Positions 20,313 to 59,888 of a stretch of DNA of 64,000 bases are shown one piece after another. Both the position numbers and the translations under genes were made by a program. The stretch's first letter is position 1; each line of letters opens with the position of its first letter. Source of the DNA: Escherichia phage ECP2303; sequence record PP261279.1; one strand, written 5' to 3'. A model generated the notes under the pieces. That model saw nothing but the letters and a program-made list of their open reading frames with translations, had not been told where the DNA came from and did no database searches.

Positions 20313-20389
20313 TGGTCTCCACGGAGTGATTCGAACACTCGACCTCCTGATCCCAAATCAGGCGCTCTACCAAGCTGAGCTACGCGGAG
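20313..20389 (-). tRNA. tRNA-Pro (anticodon UGG)
   Basis: Hand-folded cloverleaf: T-loop TTCGAAT, anticodon loop UUUGGGA, CCA encoded. Confidence 0.7.
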
Positions 20390-20400
20390 TATTTATTATT

Positions 20401-20475
20401 TGGTGGCCCTGGGTGGAATTGAACCACCGTCTGGCGATTATGAGTCGCTTGCTTGAACCTTCCAGCTACAGGGCC
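20401..20475 (-). tRNA. tRNA-Met or Ile2 (anticodon CAU)
   Basis: Hand-folded cloverleaf: T-loop TTCAATT, anticodon loop CUCAUAA, CCA encoded. Confidence 0.65.
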
Positions 20476-20476
20476 A

Positions 20477-20552
20477 TGGTGCTGATGGCAGGACTTGAAC
20501 CTGCAACCTATTGATTACAAATCAATTGCACTGACAATTGTGCTACATCAGC
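20477..20552 (-). tRNA. tRNA-Thr (anticodon UGU)
   Basis: Hand-folded cloverleaf: T-loop TTCAAGT, anticodon stem AUUGA/UCAAU with loop UUUGUAA, CCA encoded. Confidence 0.65.
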
Positions 20553-20556
20553 AAAA

Positions 20557-20655
20557 GGTGCTAGGTGATGGAATCGAACCACCTATGTATTCAACGACTA
20601 CCTCGTCTATTTTCAGGATTAAAAATCCTCGCCCTTGCCAAAGGGCTTACCTAGC
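20557..20655 (-). tRNA. tRNA-like element, atypical (~99 nt; anticodon unassigned)
   Basis: Canonical acceptor stem (GCTAGGT/ACCTAGC), D arm and T arm (GGTGG-TTCGATT-CCATC), but two internal hairpins both have 5-nt loops, so there is no 7-nt anticodon loop. Confidence 0.4.
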
Positions 20656-20743
20656 GCAATATGTTGACCATGTGGCTAGTCGGCGATGACGACTGTAACA
20701 TTTGATAATCCGGTTCTGCTTCCGGCTTTCGCTTAATTACAAG

Positions 20744-20834
20744 GTCAACAATGTGGCGGAGAGTAATGGAATCGAACCATCATCGAGTTATCCTCAACGG
20801 GACGGTTTTCAAGACCGCTTGAGCACCATTGCTC
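20744..20834 (-). tRNA. tRNA-Ser (anticodon UGA)
   Basis: Class II tRNA with a long variable arm; anticodon loop CUUGAAA, T-loop TTCGATT, CCA encoded. Confidence 0.65.
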
Positions 20835-20958
20835 CCTACCCTCCTTTATAAATTACACTGATAATGACACTGATTTTCGAGCAGTTAGTGACTAGTATAA
20901 ACGACGATAAATATCAATGTCATTATCTGTATGATTTATGCATTTAAAAATATAAATT

Positions 20959-21045
20959 TGGTGGGGAGTGGTGGAGTCGAACCACCCGAGTCGCAATGAC
21001 AATAGATTTACAGTCTACACCGCTACCTCTACGGGATAACTCCCC
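20959..21045 (-). tRNA. tRNA-Tyr (anticodon GUA)
   Basis: Class II-like with a long variable arm; anticodon loop CUGUAAA, T-loop TTCGACT, CCA encoded. Confidence 0.6.
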
Positions 21046-21049
21046 AATT

Positions 21050-21124
21050 TGGCACCCCGTACTGGACTCGAACCAGTGTCAACGGCTTAGAAGGCCGCTG
21101 CTTTATCCACTAAGCTAACAGGGC
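21050..21124 (-). tRNA. tRNA-Arg (anticodon UCU)
   Basis: 75 nt; anticodon loop CUUCUAA, T-loop TTCGAGT, acceptor stem with two G-U pairs, CCA encoded. Confidence 0.6.
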
Positions 21125-51844: not shown

Positions 51845-52078
51845 ATGAAAGTTAAATTTCTTACAGATTTAGGGTACCCTTCCTTGGTTGACTGTGTTGG
51901 TAAAATTGTGGAAGCAAAACGGCTATCTGCAAACGAGAATGTTGTCCTGGTTAAAGGGAAGGATTTACTAGCTGCAGGTGCAGAGTCTGGCAGGATCTCT
52001 CCTGATTATATGTATTACCTATCTTTAAGTAATCTGCCAGAGCGAGGCGGTAAAGGCCTTGAAGTTGTGGAGGAGTGA
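51845..52078 (+). CDS. small protein, MKVK/VKGxDL paralogous family
   Basis: 77 aa; MKVKFLTDLGY...VGKIVEA...VLVKGKDLLAAGAESG; strong Shine-Dalgarno. Confidence 0.55.
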   Translation: MKVKFLTDLGYPSLVDCVGKIVEAKRLSANENVVLVKGKDLLAAGAESGRISPDYMYYLSLSNLPERGGKGLEVVEE

Positions 52079-52083
52079 CAGGT

Positions 52084-52608
52084 ATGCTTCTGATTAACTG
52101 GGAAGACCTCTATGGGGACAAAGACCCTGTTGCGTTTGTTGATCGTAGGTGGAGATACACTGAAGAACAACTGGCGGCAAAAAATTTAACTGCAAAACGC
52201 AGAAAGATCATCCAGTGCAAGTACAAATACGCACAGTTTGCTGCAAAAGTGTCTCCACAAATCGAGAGCTTTGTGCTTAAATTGTATGACGAGTACCTCA
52301 AATTCAAATTGGATTTTGTGCAGGTGTACCGTGCACAGGTACGACCAGATACCAACATATGTAGATGGAAGGTTGTTTGTGAAGGTAAAGATTTGCCGCT
52401 CAGCTTGACAATTGAGTGGCGTTATGGGTATCATGAGTGTGGTCTGTATGATATTTGGGATGTCATTGTAGATCCTGCTAAGCATCTGAACACAGAGGAG
52501 CTGGAATATATCAATAAGGTTATTCTCGATATGTTTTTCAGCTACACACATGAAAACTCTGAGAAAGAACGGGATAATTTTCTTGACACCCTCAGCGACC
52601 ATTTGTAG
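52084..52608 (+). CDS. hypothetical protein
   Basis: Trimmed to the ATG after GGAGGAG; ~175 aa. Confidence 0.5.
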   Translation: MLLINWEDLYGDKDPVAFVDRRWRYTEEQLAAKNLTAKRRKIIQCKYKYAQFAAKVSPQIESFVLKLYDEYLKFKLDFVQVYRAQVRPDTNICRWKVVCEGKDLPLSLTIEWRYGYHECGLYDIWDVIVDPAKHLNTEELEYINKVILDMFFSYTHENSEKERDNFLDTLSDHL

Positions 52609-52611
52609 TAT
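52583..52611 (+). promoter_or_regulatory. sigma70-like promoter
   Basis: TTGACA-N17-TAGTAT within the 3' end of the upstream gene. Confidence 0.45.
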
Positions 52612-52638
52612 ACAATTTAACCTACAAAGGGAGGACCA

Positions 52639-52866
52639 ATGAGTATAAATGTTGTGCTAATAGGTTACCTGGTAATGTCCGTTATAACAGCGGTATTCTT
52701 GACAGGTGTATGCATCGTGTCCAGACGAAGGGTGAAGTTTGATGATTTTATCACCATCATCACTGCTGCACCTTTTTGGCCTGTTGTTATCTTCATCGTA
52801 ATAATGTGCCTAGTTGATTACTACAAGAATATCAGGAAGGAGAGTAGGGATGGAGACCGCACCTAA
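52639..52866 (+). CDS. two-TM small membrane protein (holin-like candidate)
   Basis: 75 aa with two hydrophobic helices and a charged C-terminus; AAGGGAGGA Shine-Dalgarno. Confidence 0.5.
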   Translation: MSINVVLIGYLVMSVITAVFLTGVCIVSRRRVKFDDFITIITAAPFWPVVIFIVIMCLVDYYKNIRKESRDGDRT

Positions 52867-53002
52867 AACTATCTATACTGTTCTTAAAGAGATTGCGTTC
52901 TACGCAGATCTTAGCCAGGCACCTTTATGGGAAAAGAGCATGTATTTAAAATGGTGCGTTAATTTAGGGAGACCTTCCAGTGTTTCAAGCCATGTTTATT
53001 GA
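52850..53002 (+). CDS. hypothetical small protein
   Basis: Trimmed to the ATG with GGAAGGAGAG Shine-Dalgarno; 50 aa. Confidence 0.35.
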   Translation: METAPKTIYTVLKEIAFYADLSQAPLWEKSMYLKWCVNLGRPSSVSSHVY

Positions 53003-53085
53003 GATGCTATCTGGGATATTGTTACTGGTAGCCATCTTAGGTGGTGCAGTTCTGATGTATAACTATCTTGAAAAAGGAGACAGCA

Positions 53086-53271
53086 ATGGTAAAAAATAAA
53101 TCTTTAGAGCAGGCTGAAAACCTTCTCCACGAGCTGGTAAAGGAGTGGAAAGTTGAATACTCAGATTTTAATGCACGAGAGGGTGAAGATTATTGGCCTA
53201 CGGAGCGCTCAGAGGGCGAATGGTATCAAGATTTTATAGAGTGGTTATATCAGACGTGCGATGAGGGGTGA
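53086..53271 (+). CDS. hypothetical protein
   Basis: Trimmed to the ATG with AAAGGAGA Shine-Dalgarno; acidic. Confidence 0.45.
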   Translation: MVKNKSLEQAENLLHELVKEWKVEYSDFNAREGEDYWPTERSEGEWYQDFIEWLYQTCDEG

Positions 53272-53738
53272 CGATGTTTGTTAAATATGTAAAAACGTGC
53301 CTCAACAGTCTTGGCAGAGAGCATTGGTACACCTTGCTTGAAAAAGGGGAAATTTTAACAAAATCTGGAAAGATAACTTTGATACCTCTTGATAGTAAAG
53401 GTAAAGACCCGTCACGACTTGTTATAGATGATTACGTTACAGGTGTGACGTTCGAGGTCTCTGTGGAGAGGTTAATACGCAGAGCTGGCGGCCCTTATGA
53501 CCGAAGAGAGTATGTTTTCGATTCCGTTACAGAGATGGGGGAGCATCCGTCTTTAATGTTCAGGATGGTAATCAGAGATATGAGGTCATCTATAGATAGG
53601 ATCGTAAAGGACATTAAGGAACCTTTTAGAGTAAAAGTTAAGAAGTTTTTCGATTCTAAGATTAACATACTCGCCGTTGCACTAGGTGTAGTTCAACTTC
53701 TGTTAATTTTGCACTATTTTGAACTACTATTTAAGTAG
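53268..53738 (+). CDS. hypothetical protein with C-terminal TM anchor
   Basis: 156 aa; C-terminal hydrophobic segment ILAVALGVVQLLLILHYF. Confidence 0.5.
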   Translation: MTMFVKYVKTCLNSLGREHWYTLLEKGEILTKSGKITLIPLDSKGKDPSRLVIDDYVTGVTFEVSVERLIRRAGGPYDRREYVFDSVTEMGEHPSLMFRMVIRDMRSSIDRIVKDIKEPFRVKVKKFFDSKINILAVALGVVQLLLILHYFELLFK

Positions 53739-53800
53739 TAGTTGAGATATGGCACAAAGGATGTGCCATAGTGAAATAAACTAAGAAAGAGGTAGAGAGA

Positions 53801-54148
53801 ATGCCAAAGATTAAAACGTTATTACTGTGGGTAGCTGTTTTAGCTTTTATAGGGTACTGGACTTGGGAAACTGAATTAAAAGATATCGGATATACCAGTC
53901 TTGAGAGCAAGGCGTGCATTGGCATAACCGATGCGTTCAGGCAAAATGCTATGGATCACGAATGTGTTGATGCAGATATAGATGAGAAACTGTCTAAGGA
54001 CAAAGATTTTTACCATGGGTATGCTTTACTTGATAGTGGTGACACTGTAGAGTTCTGGTCGTGGTTTCGTGAAGATGGAACAATAAAAACAGCAGTAAAG
54101 ATCTCTAACAAAGAGTTAATGCTGTTGCAGCAAAAGGAGGCTCAATGA
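53801..54148 (+). CDS. hypothetical protein with N-terminal signal/TM
   Basis: 115 aa; N-terminal LLLWVAVLAFIGYW. Confidence 0.5.
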   Translation: MPKIKTLLLWVAVLAFIGYWTWETELKDIGYTSLESKACIGITDAFRQNAMDHECVDADIDEKLSKDKDFYHGYALLDSGDTVEFWSWFREDGTIKTAVKISNKELMLLQQKEAQ

Positions 54149-54432
54149 TCTGGATATCCTATGCTGATGGCACCATGCTGTATACTGCAGGTACCAGATA
54201 TGAAGTTCAGGAGAACGATAAAAAATTTATCGTAAAAACATTTGACAAGGACGACAACCTTTTGCTAGAATTGACTTACAAAGTTGGAGAGGTATCCAAT
54301 ATCCAGTTGGATTGTGGTCATAAAGATAATCCACTCAAAAAACCTGGAGTAGGTAAGGCTTCAGAAGAACGTCTGTCTCGTATTGCAGAAAGCGTTTCTC
54401 CCCAAAAATCTAAGAAGAGGACTAGAAAATGA
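54145..54432 (+). CDS. hypothetical protein
   Basis: 95-aa ORF with overlapping start/stop. Confidence 0.45.
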   Translation: MIWISYADGTMLYTAGTRYEVQENDKKFIVKTFDKDDNLLLELTYKVGEVSNIQLDCGHKDNPLKKPGVGKASEERLSRIAESVSPQKSKKRTRK

Positions 54433-54623
54433 AAAACTTACGTTTTAACACTTATTACTACAACACATTGAATGATTTGTATTATATTGTTCGAAGTAAA
54501 AGTCCTGAAACAGTCCTATTCTGCCGCGAACCTTTCAAAGGGGAGGAAGTAGAGTCTGAGATGAATGTTAGCCAGATCACCTCTTTGTTGCTCTCAGGCG
54601 CAATGGAAGAAGCAATATTCTAA
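54429..54623 (+). CDS. hypothetical protein
   Basis: 64-aa ORF. Confidence 0.4.
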   Translation: MKNLRFNTYYYNTLNDLYYIVRSKSPETVLFCREPFKGEEVESEMNVSQITSLLLSGAMEEAIF

Positions 54624-54641
54624 ACCAGGCAGGAGGGTTTT

Positions 54642-54827
54642 ATGAAGCACTATTGCCTGTCTGGTAGAATGGGTGCAGATTGTGATTGGGTTTTCTTAAA
54701 ACTTGTCAGCATTCGAGAGTTCATCCCAGAGGAAGAGCAAGAAAGCGAGCTGATGTCATGGATCAACCATTACGGTAACACTTTTCGGCATGTTAAGGTA
54801 GAAGAGTTGCCAAGCGAGGCTGATTGA
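54642..54827 (+). CDS. hypothetical protein
   Basis: 61-aa ORF with GGAGGG Shine-Dalgarno. Confidence 0.45.
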   Translation: MKHYCLSGRMGADCDWVFLKLVSIREFIPEEEQESELMSWINHYGNTFRHVKVEELPSEAD

Positions 54828-54829
54828 CT

Positions 54830-54919
54830 ATGATTGCATCAATATTAACGTTTATAGGTGGCGTGGCATTCGGATTCATTGTTTGCCTGTTTATAGTGAT
54901 TATGTCTATGCGAGGCTGA
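54830..54919 (+). CDS. hydrophobic micro-protein (29 aa), not in the ORF track
   Basis: MIASILTFIGGVAFGFIVCLFIVIMSMRG; fills the gap between flanking genes. Confidence 0.35.
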   Translation: MIASILTFIGGVAFGFIVCLFIVIMSMRG

Positions 54920-54922
54920 ATT

Positions 54923-55219
54923 ATGAAACTTTTTGAGTGGTTTAAAAAGTTTAAATATAAAGCTGTAGCCATCGTGCCGTGGTCCATTCAGTGGGTTGAT
55001 GAAGGTGGTCTACCGATACCTGGTGACAAAGATACTGGGTACTGGATTATGATGGAGAACGGGTTTGGAAAGCGAAAGTATACGTGCACAAACTCTACTC
55101 GATCTGCACTTAATAGAGTTCCTGGTTACAAACTTATGGTTGTGTGGAAAATGTCAGGCGTGCCTCCAGCCAATGCTCAATTTCTTACTGACAATCCGAC
55201 CACGGTAGAGGGAGATTGA
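54923..55219 (+). CDS. hypothetical protein
   Basis: 98-aa ORF. Confidence 0.45.
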   Translation: MKLFEWFKKFKYKAVAIVPWSIQWVDEGGLPIPGDKDTGYWIMMENGFGKRKYTCTNSTRSALNRVPGYKLMVVWKMSGVPPANAQFLTDNPTTVEGD

Positions 55220-55503
55220 TAATGAAAAAGATTAACAGTAGTGAAGTAGAGTTTAAACTTGTCGGAAAAGGCACTTACTGGGAAGTTCGTCAAAAGGTAT
55301 ATTTGTTCGGTATTATTCCCTACTGGTCTAAATTCTACTGGGGAGCTAACGAGTGGGGAAGATACGCCACCAAATCAATGGCACTTATTGGTATAGCAGA
55401 GTACATTGCAGCCCGAGATAGGGTTGGAACCACTTATTACTACACTGCTGACGATATTCGTAACAGTGTTTACGTCCCACAACCGCCTGAGGGAGACCGT
55501 TGA
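55216..55503 (+). CDS. hypothetical protein
   Basis: 95-aa ORF. Confidence 0.45.
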   Translation: MIMKKINSSEVEFKLVGKGTYWEVRQKVYLFGIIPYWSKFYWGANEWGRYATKSMALIGIAEYIAARDRVGTTYYYTADDIRNSVYVPQPPEGDR

Positions 55504-55727
55504 TGAAAGTTAAAGTTTTAGATTCAAGCTTCTATATTGGTCAGGAGCCTTTAGTGGGGAAAGTGTTTACCGCTATCCCTAACGAAGATTATCCTGACCT
55601 TTTAAAAATAAAAGGTGCAGATCTTATTTCCGCTGGTGCATCTCAGGACTGCTTTGACAGCCAGTGGACCTACAACTTTGCCCTTGGTGAGGATGTAGAG
55701 ATAGTGGAGGACGAGAATGAAGGTTAA
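55500..55727 (+). CDS. small protein, MKVK/VKGxDL paralogous family
   Basis: MMKVKVLDSSFYIGQ...VGKVFTA...LKIKGADLISAGAS. Confidence 0.55.
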   Translation: MMKVKVLDSSFYIGQEPLVGKVFTAIPNEDYPDLLKIKGADLISAGASQDCFDSQWTYNFALGEDVEIVEDENEG

Positions 55728-55971
55728 AATTCTTGATTCTAACGTCTACTTGGGACAATCCTTCCTGAAGGGAAAGGTCGTTCCTGCGGTATACTTTGAA
55801 GGGTTGCCGTGGGATGATCCTGTGCGGCAACATCACAGTTATGTAGGCCACAACGTGGTGTTTATCTTGGGATCAGACCTGATCGCTGCTGGTGCACCGG
55901 AATATTATTTCGGGGAAGAATCCTATTATGCCTTTGGGGCAGGGTCAGATGCAGATATTGTAGAGCTGTGA
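55717..55971 (+). CDS. small protein, MKVK/VKGxDL paralogous family
   Basis: MKVKILDSNVYLGQ...KGKVVPA...FILGSDLIAAGAP; tandem to the previous paralog. Confidence 0.55.
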   Translation: MKVKILDSNVYLGQSFLKGKVVPAVYFEGLPWDDPVRQHHSYVGHNVVFILGSDLIAAGAPEYYFGEESYYAFGAGSDADIVEL

Positions 55972-55983
55972 TGGGTAACCGTT

Positions 55984-56382
55984 GTGAAAAATAAACTGTT
56001 CAGAGTTACAATGAAAATTCGCGGAGCTTGGAGCGTAAAGCAAGGGCGTATTCCAGAATTTGAGAAAAACTTCTACGTAGTCTCCACCTCGGAGGAGGCT
56101 GCATGCTGGCAAGCTGGCTATGCCTATGCAAGAACCTGGTACGAAGGATACCAGACTGGAGGCTATGACGGAGAAATTATCAGCAAGGGTGTAGAAGAAA
56201 TTAATGTGTTGACAAGTGAAAAAGTTTTTGTTATAGTGCATCCAGATTCCAGAGTGAAGCATTACTGGAATGCCAGAACAAAAACTTGGACACCGTTTGC
56301 AGATTCTGCTACGCCACTTTTAAACCAGAAAGCTCTTGACTCTGCCCCAAGTTATGGGGTTGTTGAAGAAAAGCTAAACTGA
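55984..56382 (+). CDS. hypothetical protein, paralog of 58189..58584
   Basis: Shared blocks with 58189..58584 (EG, KxFV..HP.S...YW, WTP, AT.L); possible GTG start. Confidence 0.5.
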   Translation: MKNKLFRVTMKIRGAWSVKQGRIPEFEKNFYVVSTSEEAACWQAGYAYARTWYEGYQTGGYDGEIISKGVEEINVLTSEKVFVIVHPDSRVKHYWNARTKTWTPFADSATPLLNQKALDSAPSYGVVEEKLN

Positions 56383-56399
56383 AACAGTGAGGTGCCACT

Positions 56400-56690
56400 A
56401 TGATGGATTTAGTTCGGAATATTGATAACGCAGGAGAGCTTAAAGACGATGGTGTAACAAGCATGGACAAACCCTGCTCTGCAGAGGTTGACTCAAAATG
56501 GACCTACAAGTTTGACGGAGAGATCTTCGCAAATGATGAGAAGGTTGTGGATGCTGCAGCCATTTTGAACGCTCTAGGGTACGACCCTGTGAATTCTTTG
56601 ATCAAGGATCCTGTTGAGTTTGCAGAGTATGTTCGAAAAATGGCAGATCTTGCTGTGGATATTTTAAAAACTATCGACGACAAGCTGTAA
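56400..56690 (+). CDS. hypothetical protein
   Basis: 96-aa acidic ORF. Confidence 0.45.
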   Translation: MMDLVRNIDNAGELKDDGVTSMDKPCSAEVDSKWTYKFDGEIFANDEKVVDAAAILNALGYDPVNSLIKDPVEFAEYVRKMADLAVDILKTIDDKL

Positions 56691-56696
56691 AAACTG

Positions 56697-56725
56697 TTGA
56701 CACAACGCTTCAGATTTAGTATCAT
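56697..56725 (+). promoter_or_regulatory. sigma70-like promoter
   Basis: TTGACA-N17-TATCAT. Confidence 0.45.
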
Positions 56726-56772
56726 TGTTTTCAAAGAGGGTTTGGTTCCCTCTTCTTTAAAAGGAACACGTT

Positions 56773-57090
56773 ATGCAAATTGAAATCACTGGCAACGTAG
56801 AAATCACTGAAGGTATGGTGTCTTTCATTTCCCACAAAATGTCTAAGCTGGAGCGTTTGCACCCCTCTGCCAACTATGCACGTGTGAGTGTAAAAGTTGA
56901 AAATGATCACCAGGAAGTTATGGCGTTCATTTTTGACAATTCTGGAAAAGAAGTTATTGCCAAAGCTAAAGGCAGTGATGCTTACGAGGCAACTGACCGT
57001 ATGGTAGATGTTGCAGCACGTCAACTGGCTAAATGCGGTGGAAAGAAAGGTAAGGGGAAAGGCAAAGTAAAGATTGACTTTGGAGAATGA
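56773..57090 (+). CDS. hypothetical protein
   Basis: 105-aa ORF with AAAGGAA Shine-Dalgarno and basic GKKGKGKGK tail. Confidence 0.5.
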   Translation: MQIEITGNVEITEGMVSFISHKMSKLERLHPSANYARVSVKVENDHQEVMAFIFDNSGKEVIAKAKGSDAYEATDRMVDVAARQLAKCGGKKGKGKGKVKIDFGE

Positions 57091-57099
57091 GGTGCTACA

Positions 57100-57201
57100 A
57101 TGGGTGTGATCAAGAAATTAGTCCCAAATGTAGAGATTGCATGCTTTGAAATTATGTTTGCAATCGCAGTTGTAGTTAATGTGTTAGGTTACGGCTATTA
57201 A
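57100..57201 (+). CDS. hydrophobic micro-protein (33 aa), not in the ORF track
   Basis: TGAGGTG Shine-Dalgarno; MGVIKKLVPNVEIACFEIMFAIAVVVNVLGYGY. Confidence 0.4.
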   Translation: MGVIKKLVPNVEIACFEIMFAIAVVVNVLGYGY

Positions 57202-57227
57202 TATCAAATAATTGAGGAGACCTCTAA

Positions 57228-57497
57228 ATGAAAATTAAATTATTCAAAACTGAGCTGGCAGACAAAAACTGTGGACTGGTTGAAGGTATGATTGTCGAAG
57301 CACAACCAGTTGACTATATGAAGGTGGTTCGTGATGCCCTGGGTGAAGGTTTTGATCTGATGGAGCCAGCTCTGCGAGAAGATGTTATCGAGATGGCTAA
57401 AAAGCACACACCTGAAGGCATGGTGGTGTTTGTTGCACCGGGTAACGGAGAAGAGTTGATTGTAACTCCGGATGTGTATGAGATTGTAGAGGAATAA
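57228..57497 (+). CDS. small acidic protein, MKIK-start family
   Basis: 89 aa beginning MKIKLFKTEL with GAGGAGA Shine-Dalgarno. Confidence 0.5.
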   Translation: MKIKLFKTELADKNCGLVEGMIVEAQPVDYMKVVRDALGEGFDLMEPALREDVIEMAKKHTPEGMVVFVAPGNGEELIVTPDVYEIVEE

Positions 57498-57588
57498 TCC
57501 TGCTTGGATTAGCATACTTCCTCGATAAGGAAGGTTTGTAATTATTTGTGGGAAAGGAATCCCAATCTCTTACCAGAGGTGATACTAT

Positions 57589-57852
57589 ATGATTGTTTAT
57601 TTTAAAACTTCAGGTGGATACCCTGATTCTCAAAGCTTGATCGGAAAAACGTGCACAGCATACTCACCTCTTGATGAGGAGGTAGGCGATATTCTACGAA
57701 ATATGTATCGGATTGACCCCCAAGAAGCCTTTGATCAAAACCTTGTATTTGTCAAGGGCTCAGATATGAAGTCTTTGGGAGCATTCCCTGAAGCAGATGA
57801 TGATGCCGTTTATTCGTTCATGACTCCTTTTGAAGCTATGGTTGTTGGGTGA
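57589..57852 (+). CDS. small protein, VKGxDL paralogous family
   Basis: LIGKTCTA...LVFVKGSDMKSLGAF motif. Confidence 0.5.
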   Translation: MIVYFKTSGGYPDSQSLIGKTCTAYSPLDEEVGDILRNMYRIDPQEAFDQNLVFVKGSDMKSLGAFPEADDDAVYSFMTPFEAMVVG

Positions 57853-57856
57853 TAAT

Positions 57857-58189
57857 ATGAAAGTACGCTTTATTGGTGAAACAATTCCTGTGCATCTCCG
57901 GTCTCCTGAGGATTCTGCAGATCTTGCATCTCAAAAGGCGAGAGGTTATGATAAGAAAGTAACCTCAACCGATGTAGTGCTTGAGGCTACCAGTCTACCT
58001 GACCCTGCGGCATTCTTTAATCATTATGGGTACTATTTCAGCAATCTGATGAATATCGGTGAGCTTGTGTTTATTAGTGGTGGAGAGATTGTTAGCAAGC
58101 TTGGCGGCGATCCAGATGTCTTTCATGAAACCTGTCCTTTTGCATTTGTGGTAGGTTCAGATGTGGAAGTTATTGAGGAGGTGCGGTAA
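57857..58189 (+). CDS. small protein, MKV-start family
   Basis: Trimmed to MKVRFIGET; ELVFISGGEIVSKLGG motif. Confidence 0.45.
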   Translation: MKVRFIGETIPVHLRSPEDSADLASQKARGYDKKVTSTDVVLEATSLPDPAAFFNHYGYYFSNLMNIGELVFISGGEIVSKLGGDPDVFHETCPFAFVVGSDVEVIEEVR

Positions 58190-58584
58190 TGGTAAGCCTG
58201 TACCGTGTTGAGTATAGCTCAGATACTGTATACAACGTAAGAAGCAAAGATCGCAGCGACAGAGTGCAAGAAATGTATGTTCTTGCCGACAGTCCGTTAT
58301 CTGCAGCGTTCAAGGCAGGGGCTCTTGCATCTCGTTGGAAATTTGAAGGGGGATCTTTCTATGAAGAAACCCTTGAAGATTCTGTTGTTATTTCTTCTGT
58401 AGAGGTTTCAGACGACTACGAAGGGAAAAAGTTCGTAATGCGGCACCCACACAGCAACATTGCGTACTACTGGGATGTTCTGAACAACGAGTGGACCCCA
58501 GATCTTCAGAAGGCTACTGTGCTAACACCGTTTTTGGCAGATAAGTTCCCACCAGAAGGTAATTTATCCGCACTGTTTCAGTAA
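58189..58584 (+). CDS. hypothetical protein, paralog of 55984..56382
   Basis: Shared blocks with 55984..56382 (see that entry). Confidence 0.5.
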   Translation: MVSLYRVEYSSDTVYNVRSKDRSDRVQEMYVLADSPLSAAFKAGALASRWKFEGGSFYEETLEDSVVISSVEVSDDYEGKKFVMRHPHSNIAYYWDVLNNEWTPDLQKATVLTPFLADKFPPEGNLSALFQ

Positions 58585-58602
58585 TTTTCTTGCACACAGG
58601 TG

Positions 58603-58631
58603 TTGACAACGCCAACCCTGTGTGAAATAAT
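58603..58631 (+). promoter_or_regulatory. sigma70-like promoter flanked by an 8-bp inverted repeat
   Basis: TTGACA-N17-AATAAT; CACACAGG (58592-58599) and CCTGTGTG (58617-58624) bracket the -35. Confidence 0.4.
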
Positions 58632-58663
58632 ACCTTCATCTTAACAAGACAGGAGACCGATTG

Positions 58664-58921
58664 ATGAAGATTAAATTGAAAAACCTTGAAACGGCAGAGA
58701 TTCAGGACGGTGTTGATTTCCGTTCTAAAGATGGTGACATCTTAGAGGTAAATATTCCAACCTACAAGCTGATTAAAGGTTTTGGCAACGTTCCGGAAGA
58801 GGATATTACAGAAATTCTTATGATGTTGATTCTTGACGGAACTGTGTTTGTAGGTGAAGGTGAGAACGCTATTGCAATCCCAGGCCATTTTTATGAAGTA
58901 GTTGACGAAGAGGTGCTGTAA
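58664..58921 (+). CDS. small acidic protein, MKIK-start family
   Basis: MKIKLKNLE with AGGAGA Shine-Dalgarno. Confidence 0.5.
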   Translation: MKIKLKNLETAEIQDGVDFRSKDGDILEVNIPTYKLIKGFGNVPEEDITEILMMLILDGTVFVGEGENAIAIPGHFYEVVDEEVL

Positions 58922-59272
58922 ATGAAAGTAGAAATTACTGGTTTTGATGTGAATGTGGTTCCGGAAGATATTTTAGCTAAACTCCCGGAAGGTTTTGGTA
59001 ACGGTGTTGTGGTGGATGCTGTTCCTCCTACCAAAGACATTCTGCTGCAGTATGGTGTAGCAGAGGAAGATGTCGATAAAGTTCTTACAATGATGGCAAT
59101 CGATCGTGTTGTCGTTGTTAAAGGTCTCGATAATTTTGAGAGTGATCCCCTGATTATTCGTGGAGATGACTATAAAATCATCGATAATGAAGGCCAAGAG
59201 TTCTATGAGCCTTGTGCAGAAGATATTCTTAACTTATTACTGGAAGCAGGTACCGAAGAGGAGGACGAATAA
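58922..59272 (+). CDS. small acidic protein, MKV-start family
   Basis: MKVEITGFD...VVVKGLDN. Confidence 0.5.
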   Translation: MKVEITGFDVNVVPEDILAKLPEGFGNGVVVDAVPPTKDILLQYGVAEEDVDKVLTMMAIDRVVVVKGLDNFESDPLIIRGDDYKIIDNEGQEFYEPCAEDILNLLLEAGTEEEDE

Positions 59273-59601
59273 TGAAGATTGACCCGTTACTGAAGGCTCG
59301 TGCAGAAAAAGCGTACACCATTAAGCTGACCAACCTGGTTCCTACTTGTCATCCAGATGTAGGTTGGCCTGAAGGTCTGGTAGAGGGGACTGTAACAGCT
59401 GCATACCTCCCTAACATCAAATACCTTATGGAAATCTTGGAGCTGGATGAGGAAACGGCAGAAGAGTTACAGTTGGACATGAAACAAAGTGGGACTCTGG
59501 TTATTCACGGGTGGTATAATACTAAAGACGCAGAAGACCCTCTTGTAACTTCTAATCTGGCATATGAAATCTTAGGACCTTTGAACCTGGGGGAAGACTA
59601 A
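59272..59601 (+). CDS. small acidic protein
   Basis: 109-aa ORF starting MKIDPLL; overlapping start/stop. Confidence 0.45.
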   Translation: MKIDPLLKARAEKAYTIKLTNLVPTCHPDVGWPEGLVEGTVTAAYLPNIKYLMEILELDEETAEELQLDMKQSGTLVIHGWYNTKDAEDPLVTSNLAYEILGPLNLGED

Positions 59602-59888
59602 TGAAAGATCTGGTTAAGATTAAGATTAAAGATACCAACGGCGAACTCAGCCATTTTGGAATTAATGATGGTGACGAGCTGATCGCACACCTGCCTACCA
59701 AGGAAGTTGTAAGCAAAGCAGTTGCCGGAGAAGAAGCTGCAATGCAGGCTGCAGGTGTTGATGAAAACTATGTAGCTATGTGCATGTGCCGAGATCAGGT
59801 TGTTCTGTATAAAGCGTATCGACCAAACGGAGCCACGGAGTGGCTTGTATTCCGACCCGAAGGGTATGAAATCTTAGAGGCACTATGA
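59601..59888 (+). CDS. small protein
   Basis: 95-aa ORF starting MKDLVKIKIK. Confidence 0.45.
   Translation: MKDLVKIKIKDTNGELSHFGINDGDELIAHLPTKEVVSKAVAGEEAAMQAAGVDENYVAMCMCRDQVVLYKAYRPNGATEWLVFRPEGYEILEAL

Follow-up and report, generated by a model that had tools for sequence, protein, structure and literature searches.

Two A-A-B Gene Trios Built from Two Families of Small Genes in the Vequintavirus Escherichia Phage ECP2303

Gene Organization of the Two Trios

A stretch of 64,000 nucleotides (nt) from Escherichia phage ECP2303 (PP261279.1), referred to here as the window, contains two groups of three small genes, in each of which two genes of a small acidic family (family A) are followed by a gene for a protein of about 130 amino acids (aa; family B). 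The initial annotation had described a unit at 55500-56382, consisting of two small family members and a 132-aa protein, and a matching unit at 57589-58584, consisting of two small family members and a 131-aa protein. The open reading frames (ORFs) of both units were confirmed (55500 is an in-frame TTG one codon upstream of the A1 start at 55503), and all six genes belong to family A or B (Table 1). They correspond to gp140-142 and gp147-149 in the numbering of the type phage rV5 (PMC3606486, Table S3).

Both trios run A, A, B in the same order on the plus strand, each gene of one is matched by a homolog in the other, and the two copies are about 2.2 kb apart at positions conserved in the lineage. 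When 40 genes were placed in random order, both B genes followed two A genes in about 5e-5 of the permutations.

Table 1. Trio genes, related genes and predicted promoter-like sites in the window (pI, isoelectric point).
Feature	Coordinates	Strand	Description
A0	51845..52078	+	77 aa; outside both trios, 3.4 kb upstream; pI 5.4; most widely conserved member of family A
A1 (rV5 gp140)	55503..55727	+	74 aa; pI 4.05; minimal form of family A; phrog_5009
A2 (rV5 gp141)	55717..55971	+	84 aa; mid-domain insertion; phrog_5009
B1 (rV5 gp142)	55984..56382	+	132 aa; GTG start; basic, pI 8.6; phrog_7379
gp143 homolog	56400..56690	+	96 aa; acidic; directly after B1; assigned by synteny
Promoter-like site, sigma-70 type, TTGACA-17-TATCAT	56697..56725	+	11/12 consensus matches; after trio 1 and gp143; predicted
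Ribosome hibernation factor homolog (rV5 gp144)	56773..57090	+	short; PF02482 Ribosomal_S30AE, E 1.8e-12, above curated cut-off
gp146 homolog	57228..57497	+	89 aa; first member of family C; between the trios
A3 (rV5 gp147)	57589..57852	+	87 aa; pI 4.1; divergent; mid-domain insertion
A4 (rV5 gp148)	57857..58189	+	110 aa; N-terminal and mid-domain insertions
B2 (rV5 gp149)	58189..58584	+	131 aa; acidic, pI 4.7; phrog_7379
Promoter-like site, sigma-70 type, TTGACA-17-AATAAT	58603..58631	+	extended -10 TG; directly after B2; predicted
rV5 gp150-153	58664..59888	+	four tandem members of family C; 85, 116, 109 and 95 aa; all acidic; directly downstream

Paralogy of the B Genes

B1 and B2 are true, ancient paralogs. 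BLASTP aligns the two proteins at 29% identity over 119 aa (E 4e-10), their Smith-Waterman score lies 16.9 standard deviations above 300 shuffles, none of which reaches it, and comparison of the profiles of their orthologs with hhalign gives a probability of 98.9% (E 4e-17 over 123 columns). The similarity that had been suggested for the two ~130-aa proteins is thus significant on formal alignment. Both also match phrog_7379 over their full length (B1 residues 2-132, E 9.9e-74; B2 residues 1-131, E 2.1e-66). In the phage collection, B2 was found at >= 95% identity in all 118 matching records, and B1 at full length in 117. The two proteins are opposite in charge, B1 being basic and B2 acidic.

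The start of B1 is set at ATG 56011 in GenBank record PP464953.1, which gives a protein of 123 aa. The GTG at 55984 is favoured here, as the first nine residues of the longer form align with B2 and with two full-length relatives from other lineages (P0005 and P0006), and the PHROG profile agrees. According to Table S3 of the rV5 genome paper (PMC3606486), gp142 has 132 aa, in agreement with the GTG start.

Neither B1 nor B2 matched any Pfam or NCBIfam model, PADLOC models of anti-phage defence gave no match at E <= 0.1 for B1, B2 or A0-A4, and profile searches of PDB sequences with the B proteins returned nothing significant. A relation of family B to family A or to the neighbouring family C was not detected by hhalign.

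Family A, a Family of Small Acidic Proteins

According to profile comparison, the four small genes of the trios and a fifth gene upstream, A0, are one family. The initial annotation had spoken of a small gene family in this region, which holds for the A genes of the trios; the family is larger than had been claimed, since A0 (51845-52078) is a fifth member, and the genes at 57228 and at 58664-59888 belong to family C. A1 and A2 are 40% identical (E 6e-14) and match phrog_5009 over their full length (E 1.3e-36 and 4.7e-32, respectively). A3 matches the same profile more weakly (E 1.2e-4), and A4, which falls in phrog_13661, does not match it at E <= 0.01.

A0, A3 and A4 were joined to the family because of profile-profile comparison and one coherent alignment. 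With hhalign, A4 is linked to A2 (E 2.4e-7) and A1 (E 5.8e-6), A3 to A0 (E 3e-6), A2 (E 6.8e-6) and A1 (E 1.8e-5), and A0 to A1 (E 8.5e-12) and A2 (E 4.6e-8); a hidden Markov model (HMM) of family A recognizes A0 at E 2e-24. Smith-Waterman z scores are 10.0 and 8.6 for A4 against A1 and A2, and 4.6 and 5.4 for A3, which places A4 nearer than A3 to the A1/A2 pair. The common alignment follows the pattern MKVK-L ... GY ... VGK--A ... LVFVKG-DL--AGA ... Y-F ... EIVEE, in which the differences in length between members are insertions at two sites. The A proteins of the trios have pI values of 4.05-4.66.

The AlphaFold2 model of A1 is a five-stranded SH3-like beta-barrel with a mean predicted local distance difference test score (pLDDT) of 91.1, so the family A fold is confidently predicted to be a generic SH3-like barrel. 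The closest known fold class comprises the SH3-like small beta-barrels, such as SH3 domains, the KOW domains of Spt5/NusG, PsaE and the C-terminal domain of retroviral integrase. By sequence, A0-A4 had no match in Pfam at E <= 1, its SH3 and KOW models included; family A found nothing better than E 0.06 among PDB sequences, and the NCBIfam scan gave no significant match for families A, B and C. The best match of the A1 model in BFVD was an 87-aa protein of Vequintavirus CM1, with a template modeling (TM) score of 0.80, which from its length we infer to be the ortholog of A3. Foldseek searches of BFVD also returned small proteins (65-99 aa) of T4-like and other large virulent phages, among them Citrobacter Merlin, Escherichia RB49, Cronobacter CS01 and Shigella Sf20, at TM 0.71-0.84 and 14-26% identity to the A1 model. 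These uncharacterised proteins differ from family A in that no sequence method links them to it, the likeness being one of predicted fold.

The motif DSQWTYNF of the C-terminal strand of A1 recurs as DSKWTYKF in the gp143 homolog. In the DNA, the two motifs form a direct repeat of 27 nt with 78% identity (D2; 55654-55680 and 56488-56514), and hhalign compares A1 with the gp143 homolog weakly, at E 3.4e-4 over 21 columns. This likeness may reflect a fragment of an A gene that was built into gp143, or it may be a common short motif.

Occurrence in Other Phage Lineages

The 4 kb around the trios are 100% identical to Escherichia phage ECP2309 (PP464953.1), which belongs to the rV5-like phages of the genus Vequintavirus in the Vequintavirinae, and 90-99% identical to 119 further rV5-like phage records. 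Window position 55000 corresponds to position 127863 of PP464953.1, and the end of the window is the end of that record. Eighteen GenBank records with at least ~97% identity to the region are named 'Campylobacter phage' (e.g., MG065653, MG065658 and MG065635) and give C. jejuni as host; these host labels look doubtful.

Beyond the genus, a search of 1.84 billion representative proteins with an HMM of B1 and B2 gave seven matches, including three fragments of the window's own B1/B2, two spurious repeat proteins (P0008 and P0009) and the two new full-length relatives P0005 and P0006. A second, indexed protein search added one further B variant (P0011), and a word-indexed protein search with B1 alone found near-identical sequences only. 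The only full-length relatives come from two lineages, here called X and Y, which restricts family B to this group of phages. Lineage X (P0005) is represented by a 124-kb contig in an E. coli assembly and by two SRA contigs, and lineage Y (P0006) by IMG/VR contigs of 117-140 kb; neither was found in the GenBank phage collection.

The gene order of Vequintavirus (lineage V) is gp139, A1, A2, B1, gp143, the hibernation factor gene, gp145 (33 aa), gp146, A3, A4, B2. Lineage X, the nearest uncultured sister of the genus, with proteins mostly ~40-87% identical to those of the window, has gp139, A1, A2, a 96-aa gene 'D', gp143, the hibernation factor gene, gp146, A3, A4, B2 and a PF27050 gene; D, which is unrelated to B1, sits in the place of B1, and trio 2 is intact. 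Lineage Y (mostly ~30-57% protein identity; 74% for g60677) has gp139, a D homolog, a 120-aa gene, one B gene, a gp143-like gene, gp146 and C genes; it lacks an A gene next to B, and a second trio is absent. The B protein of lineage X is 40% identical to B2 and 27% to B1; that of lineage Y is 38% identical to B1 and 26% to B2, and its gene occupies the B1 position. Orthologs of A0 are present in both lineages. Since lineage X possesses orthologs of A1, A2, A3, A4 and B2 in the same order, these paralogs predate the split between V and X.

Two genes of this comparison have no place in the trios. The PF27050 (Phage_P22_Y8K6) gene of lineage X (L010, 10467-10763) encodes 98 aa and lies between B2 and the first downstream C gene, and gene D (~96-99 aa), common to lineages X and Y, is without counterpart at this locus in Vequintavirus.

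A homolog of family A was also identified in the temperate coliphage mEp021 (MH706966.1; L017, 3001-3228). Its product, mEp021_40, has 75 aa, is 41% identical to A0 and is recognized by the family A HMM at E 1.7e-18. The gene stands by itself among accessory genes that separate Q from the lysis genes, and no B gene lies nearby, which indicates that A proteins can work without B and that the gene moves between phage types. Six more records from outside Vequintavirus match A0 at <60% identity.

Relationships among the Trio Genes

In a neighbour-joining tree of family A, based on 67 ungapped core columns, the five ortholog groups are recovered with 95-100% bootstrap support, and the V and X orthologs form a clade of their own both for A1 (100%) and for A2 (95%). 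A1 and A2 are sisters with 77% bootstrap, and their core identity is 46%, compared with 25-30% to A3 and A4. Closest relatives at matching positions of the two trios are therefore seen for B1 and B2, which are the only two B genes, and a pairing of A1 with A3 and of A2 with A4 was not seen. By profile, the strongest pair of A genes across the trios is A2 and A4, the genes directly upstream of each B.

Natural Deletion, Hybrid and Fusion Variants

EduardKellenberger (MZ501061.1, L016), a phage of the BASEL collection propagated on K-12, is without the DNA of window 52481-56296 (3.8 kb), with an overlap of about 15 nt at the joint. About 15 small genes are gone, including A1, A2 and 104 codons of B1. 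The deletion creates an in-frame fusion of a 'putative glycosidase' gene with the final 28 codons of B1 and leaves trio 2 intact. Carrying this natural knockout of trio 1, the phage still grows on E. coli K-12; the trio is thus dispensable under laboratory conditions.

In two independent metagenomic Vequintavirus contigs (L014, 4001-4213; L015, 4001-4213), one 70-aa hybrid of A1 and A2 replaces both genes. The crossover lies in the common GCTGGTGCA stretch, which encodes the conserved AGA motif (window 55618-55640 and 55874-55896, repeat D4), and these hybrids are products of unequal recombination between tandem paralogs. A further natural deletion variant, P0004 (107 aa, on a 120.6-kb contig), is an in-frame fusion of the C-terminal part of B1 with the C-terminal half of the gp143 homolog, joined at ...TWTPFAD/AAAILNALG (window ~56290-56570).

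Age of the Duplication and Selection

Pairwise alignment of the two cassettes, suggested with the initial annotation, gave the similarity expected of them at the protein level and not at the nucleotide level, where the best blastn match between trio 1 and trio 2 was 26 bp at E 0.03. A comparison of 54-61 kb with itself, in line with the suggested dot-plot of 55-59 kb, likewise yielded nothing at E <= 0.01, and searches for repeats and tandem repeats showed no duplication at the DNA level. As no DNA similarity is left, the duplication is old; the missing similarity is expected for an old event and is no argument against an ancient duplication.

The ratios of nonsynonymous to synonymous substitution rates (dN/dS) were 0.10 for A1, 0.05 for B1, 0.08 for A3, 0.07 for A4 and 0.04 for B2, with a Vequintavirus contig (L003) about 10-15% diverged in DNA as the reference; A2, with a gapped alignment to this contig, was left out. 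According to these low values, the scored genes, both B copies included, are functional under strong constraint. Chance similarity and non-coding ORFs were considered as well and are ruled out by the shuffle statistics, the dN/dS values and the conservation in 118 genomes. The retention of both B genes and their opposite charges point to roles that were divided or newly gained, not to mere redundancy.

Family C and Other Neighbouring Genes

In the first 25 kb of the window, the minus strand carries virion, lysis and tRNA genes. The plus strand is used from ~25 kb onwards, beginning with DNA-metabolism genes (ligases, exonucleases, ribonucleotide reductases, thymidylate synthase and a ClpP-like protease), and from ~50 kb it holds a run of about 40 short genes, nearly all annotated as 'hypothetical', with both trios inside. 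No compositional break was seen around either trio, and no Rfam family matched in the trio region.

Between the trios lie the gp143 homolog, the hibernation factor homolog, the 33-aa gene gp145, which is listed as a membrane protein in rV5 (PMC3606486, Table S3), and the first gene of family C. The hibernation factor gene at 56773-57090 is outside the duplication; it is preceded by a near-consensus sigma-70 promoter-like site, and its leader contains a 7-bp hairpin (56734-56754).

Family C is a second family of small acidic proteins, whose HMM recognizes its members at E 1e-23 to 1e-27. The strongest links by hhalign are g57228-g58664 (E 5.5e-8) and g57228-g59601 (E 4.5e-7); these two pairs as well as g58664-g58922, g58922-g59272 and g58922-g59601 reach a probability of 86-95%, the remaining pairs being far weaker. 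The tandem array gp150-153 is a separate expansion of paralogs. Like A and B, family C had no significant match in Pfam, NCBIfam, PADLOC or the PDB sequences. A union of A and C into one family was examined and is not established, the comparison giving E 0.003 and a probability of 10%, confined to 28 columns at the N-terminus. When every reading frame of the window was scanned with the HMMs, the result was exactly five A, two B and five C genes, and no decayed extra copies of any of the three.

In PP464953.1, as in several further records, the C gene at 57228-57497 bears the label 'sigma 54 modulation factor'. When it was compared with PF02482 together with A1-A4, B1 and B2, none of them matched, and only the gene at 56773-57090 does, so the label was probably propagated in error. 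Another member, g59272 (59272-59601), is gp152 of rV5, for which the rV5 paper gives 'structural protein (MS evidence)', based on only two mass spectrometry (MS) peptides with 12.8% coverage (PMC3606486). If this support is real, a small acidic protein of the block would be carried in the virion.

Elsewhere in the window, we also observed seven clustered tRNA genes (Pro, Met, Thr, Ser, Tyr, Arg) on the minus strand at 20313-21124. Among them, a tRNA-like element of 99 nt at 20557-20655 is called by ARAGORN with a four-base anticodon and scores only 35.5 bits with Rfam.

Predicted Expression Signals

The two sigma-70-type sites of Table 1 are the predicted promoters P144 and P150 of rV5 (PMC3606486, Table S4). 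The same study reports the putative late-promoter motif of rV5 solely in front of late genes, which lie on the opposite strand (PMC3606486). A strong hairpin (58591-58624) follows directly after the stop codon of B2, and its loop holds the -35 element TTGACA of the predicted promoter of the next gene; the intergenic region 58585-58663 folds with a z score of -3.5 relative to shuffles. This hairpin is not a canonical terminator, because no T-run follows it. The junctions of the trios are tight: the stop of gp139 and the start of A1 share TGATG (the ATG of A1 overlaps the upstream stop by 1 nt), A1 and A2 overlap by 11 nt, A2 and B1 are 12 nt apart, and A4 and B2 join in TAATG.

Evolutionary Origin of the Trios

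On balance, it is probable that the B gene was duplicated before the V-X split along with the A gene upstream of it, that a tandem duplication of A1/A2, recombination and losses came later, and that the products are accessory host-interaction factors. Under this reading, the ~130-aa B gene would have been duplicated no later than in the ancestor shared by V and X, most probably taking with it the A gene directly upstream as a two-gene A-B unit (or as B alone, placed beside pre-existing A genes). A1 and A2 would have arisen by a tandem duplication, also before the V-X split, and would have continued to recombine with each other. Later, lineage X would have lost B1, and lineage Y would have lost the second trio or never had one.

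Several points weigh against this reading. In the family A tree, A0, A3 and A4 form an unresolved star, and all nodes above the ortholog groups except (A1,A2) have <50% bootstrap; as the grouping of A4 with A1/A2 is left unresolved, the A-B unit is favoured, not proven. In the B tree, the genes of Y and X group with B1 and B2, respectively, at only 59% bootstrap. The orthology of the B genes therefore rests mainly on synteny, genome position giving the same assignment more firmly. As to function, no usable fold was obtained for B: an AlphaFold2 model of B1, built from a two-sequence alignment, had a pLDDT of 45.7, and the single match of this poor model in BFVD was the B1 ortholog of phage V18, found by sequence (TM 0.24). 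The two poor B1 models disagree, and no fold is therefore assignable to B. The deletion in EduardKellenberger takes about 15 genes together and does not show what A1, A2 or B1 does individually. Expression, interaction or phenotype data for the trio genes, transcript data included, were not found in the literature, and the publications on the rV5 genome, the BASEL collection and mEp021, along with one 2026 PNAS paper, contain nothing on the function of these genes. The promoter-like sites and junctions fit transcription of compact operons by the host polymerase in early or middle infection, a timing taken from predicted promoters only.

The next explanation, a simple segmental duplication in which the whole A-A-B block was copied once and the three pairs diverged in parallel, is unlikely. 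It agrees with the shared order and strand, with the presence of a homolog for every element, with the non-random arrangement (p ~5e-5) and with A2-A4, at matching positions, being the best pair of A genes across the trios; moreover, recombination between A1 and A2 is documented, and gene conversion could mask an older pairing of A1 with A3. Against it, A1 and A2 are sisters (77%), and A1 is no closer to A3 than A2 is (hhalign E 1.8e-5 versus 6.8e-6). The V-X monophyly of A1 (100%) and A2 (95%) requires that any homogenising conversion predate the split. Lineage X has only an incomplete trio 1, and lineage Y does not have it as a trio at all. A three-gene model survives only if an old gene conversion made A1 and A2 alike. 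From the duplicated and since diverged cassette of the initial annotation, the paralogy of the B genes, the single family of small genes and the non-random A-A-B order can be retained, whereas a single copying of three genes does not fit the sister relation of A1 and A2, the gene order of lineages X and Y or the lone A gene of mEp021.

Somewhat less likely again is the acquisition of the second copy, in which separate phage lineages would have carried B1-type and B2-type cassettes that diverged as orthologs and were later united in one genome by recombination between related phages. Such a history would suit the distribution of a B1-like gene only in Y, a B2-like gene only in X and both in Vequintavirus. 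Phage genomes are mosaic, this block itself shows deletions, fusions and, in lineage X, the PF27050 insertion, and an A-family gene has moved between unrelated phage types (mEp021). Against it, the B gene of Y lies before a gp143-like gene as B1 does, and the B gene of X lies behind A3-A4 as B2 does; the copies hold distinct, conserved positions, as differential loss after one duplication within the genome predicts. Neither trio shows a compositional break, and no donor lineage is known. Independent recruitment, with B alone duplicated and A-A-B being a functional module selected for co-transcription or translational coupling and not a historical block, is very improbable, because, although the junctions are tight (an 11-nt overlap of A1/A2, TAATG at A4/B2, 12 nt between A2 and B1) and a predicted transcription unit closes with each trio, shortly ahead of a promoter-like site, close spacing is general throughout the block, and the A1-A2 pair kept without B1 in X, the B kept without an adjacent A in Y, the lone A of mEp021 and the A1/A2 hybrids mean that the pairing is not obligatory.

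Putative Function of the A and B Proteins

For the favoured history, a duplication of B with its upstream A gene, the following role is proposed. Host RNA polymerase would transcribe the genes from sigma-70 promoters of consensus type, ahead of the DNA-metabolism genes of the same strand block or together with them. The acidic, single-domain SH3-like barrels of family A are probably small binding modules for host or phage proteins. B would be a lineage-restricted protein, and the opposite charges of B1 and B2 suggest that their roles may have been divided or altered. A and B would then be accessory factors of host interaction, serving host takeover or counter-defence, and not core replication or virion genes, and it is this accessory role that we infer for the trio genes.

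As to whether A and B act together, the comparative data would argue against an obligate pairing. A more specific proposal holds that the trios are two versions of a small module for host takeover or counter-defence, in which A proteins would serve as adaptors or partners of a B effector and B1 and B2 would have different host targets, the hibernation factor gene hinting at the translation apparatus; this we regard as a long shot.

Relation to Known Gene Families and Significance

In PHROGs, B1 and B2 belong to phrog_7379 and A1 and A2 to phrog_5009, both of 'unknown function', so the paralogy of B1/B2 and of A1/A2 is already implicit in public clustering. The PHROG assignment differs from ours in placing A3 in phrog_13920 and A4 in phrog_13661, and it is silent on the repeated gene order; A0 was left out of the PHROG scan. 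The rV5 genome paper lists gp140-149 without homologs and nowhere mentions paralogs or a duplication (PMC3606486).

Large phage genomes contain diverged paralog families of short ORFans, tandem or dispersed, in promoter-rich blocks with variable content and deletions between copies. Compared with this general small-gene paralogy, the locus described here stands out by a repeated three-gene order that combines two unrelated families, with both copies kept across the genus. The trios are nevertheless ordinary phage gene-family evolution, and not a new kind of system; the finding answers no open question and is a modestly informative example.

Vequintaviruses are among the most often isolated phages of E. 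coli and are used in biocontrol and in therapy cocktails, and about 40 of their small genes are unannotated. Twelve genes of this block reduce to three families (five A, two B and five C), and family A, with its predicted SH3-like fold, is shared with a temperate coliphage. The natural deletion and hybrid variants are ready material for functional tests of these genes.

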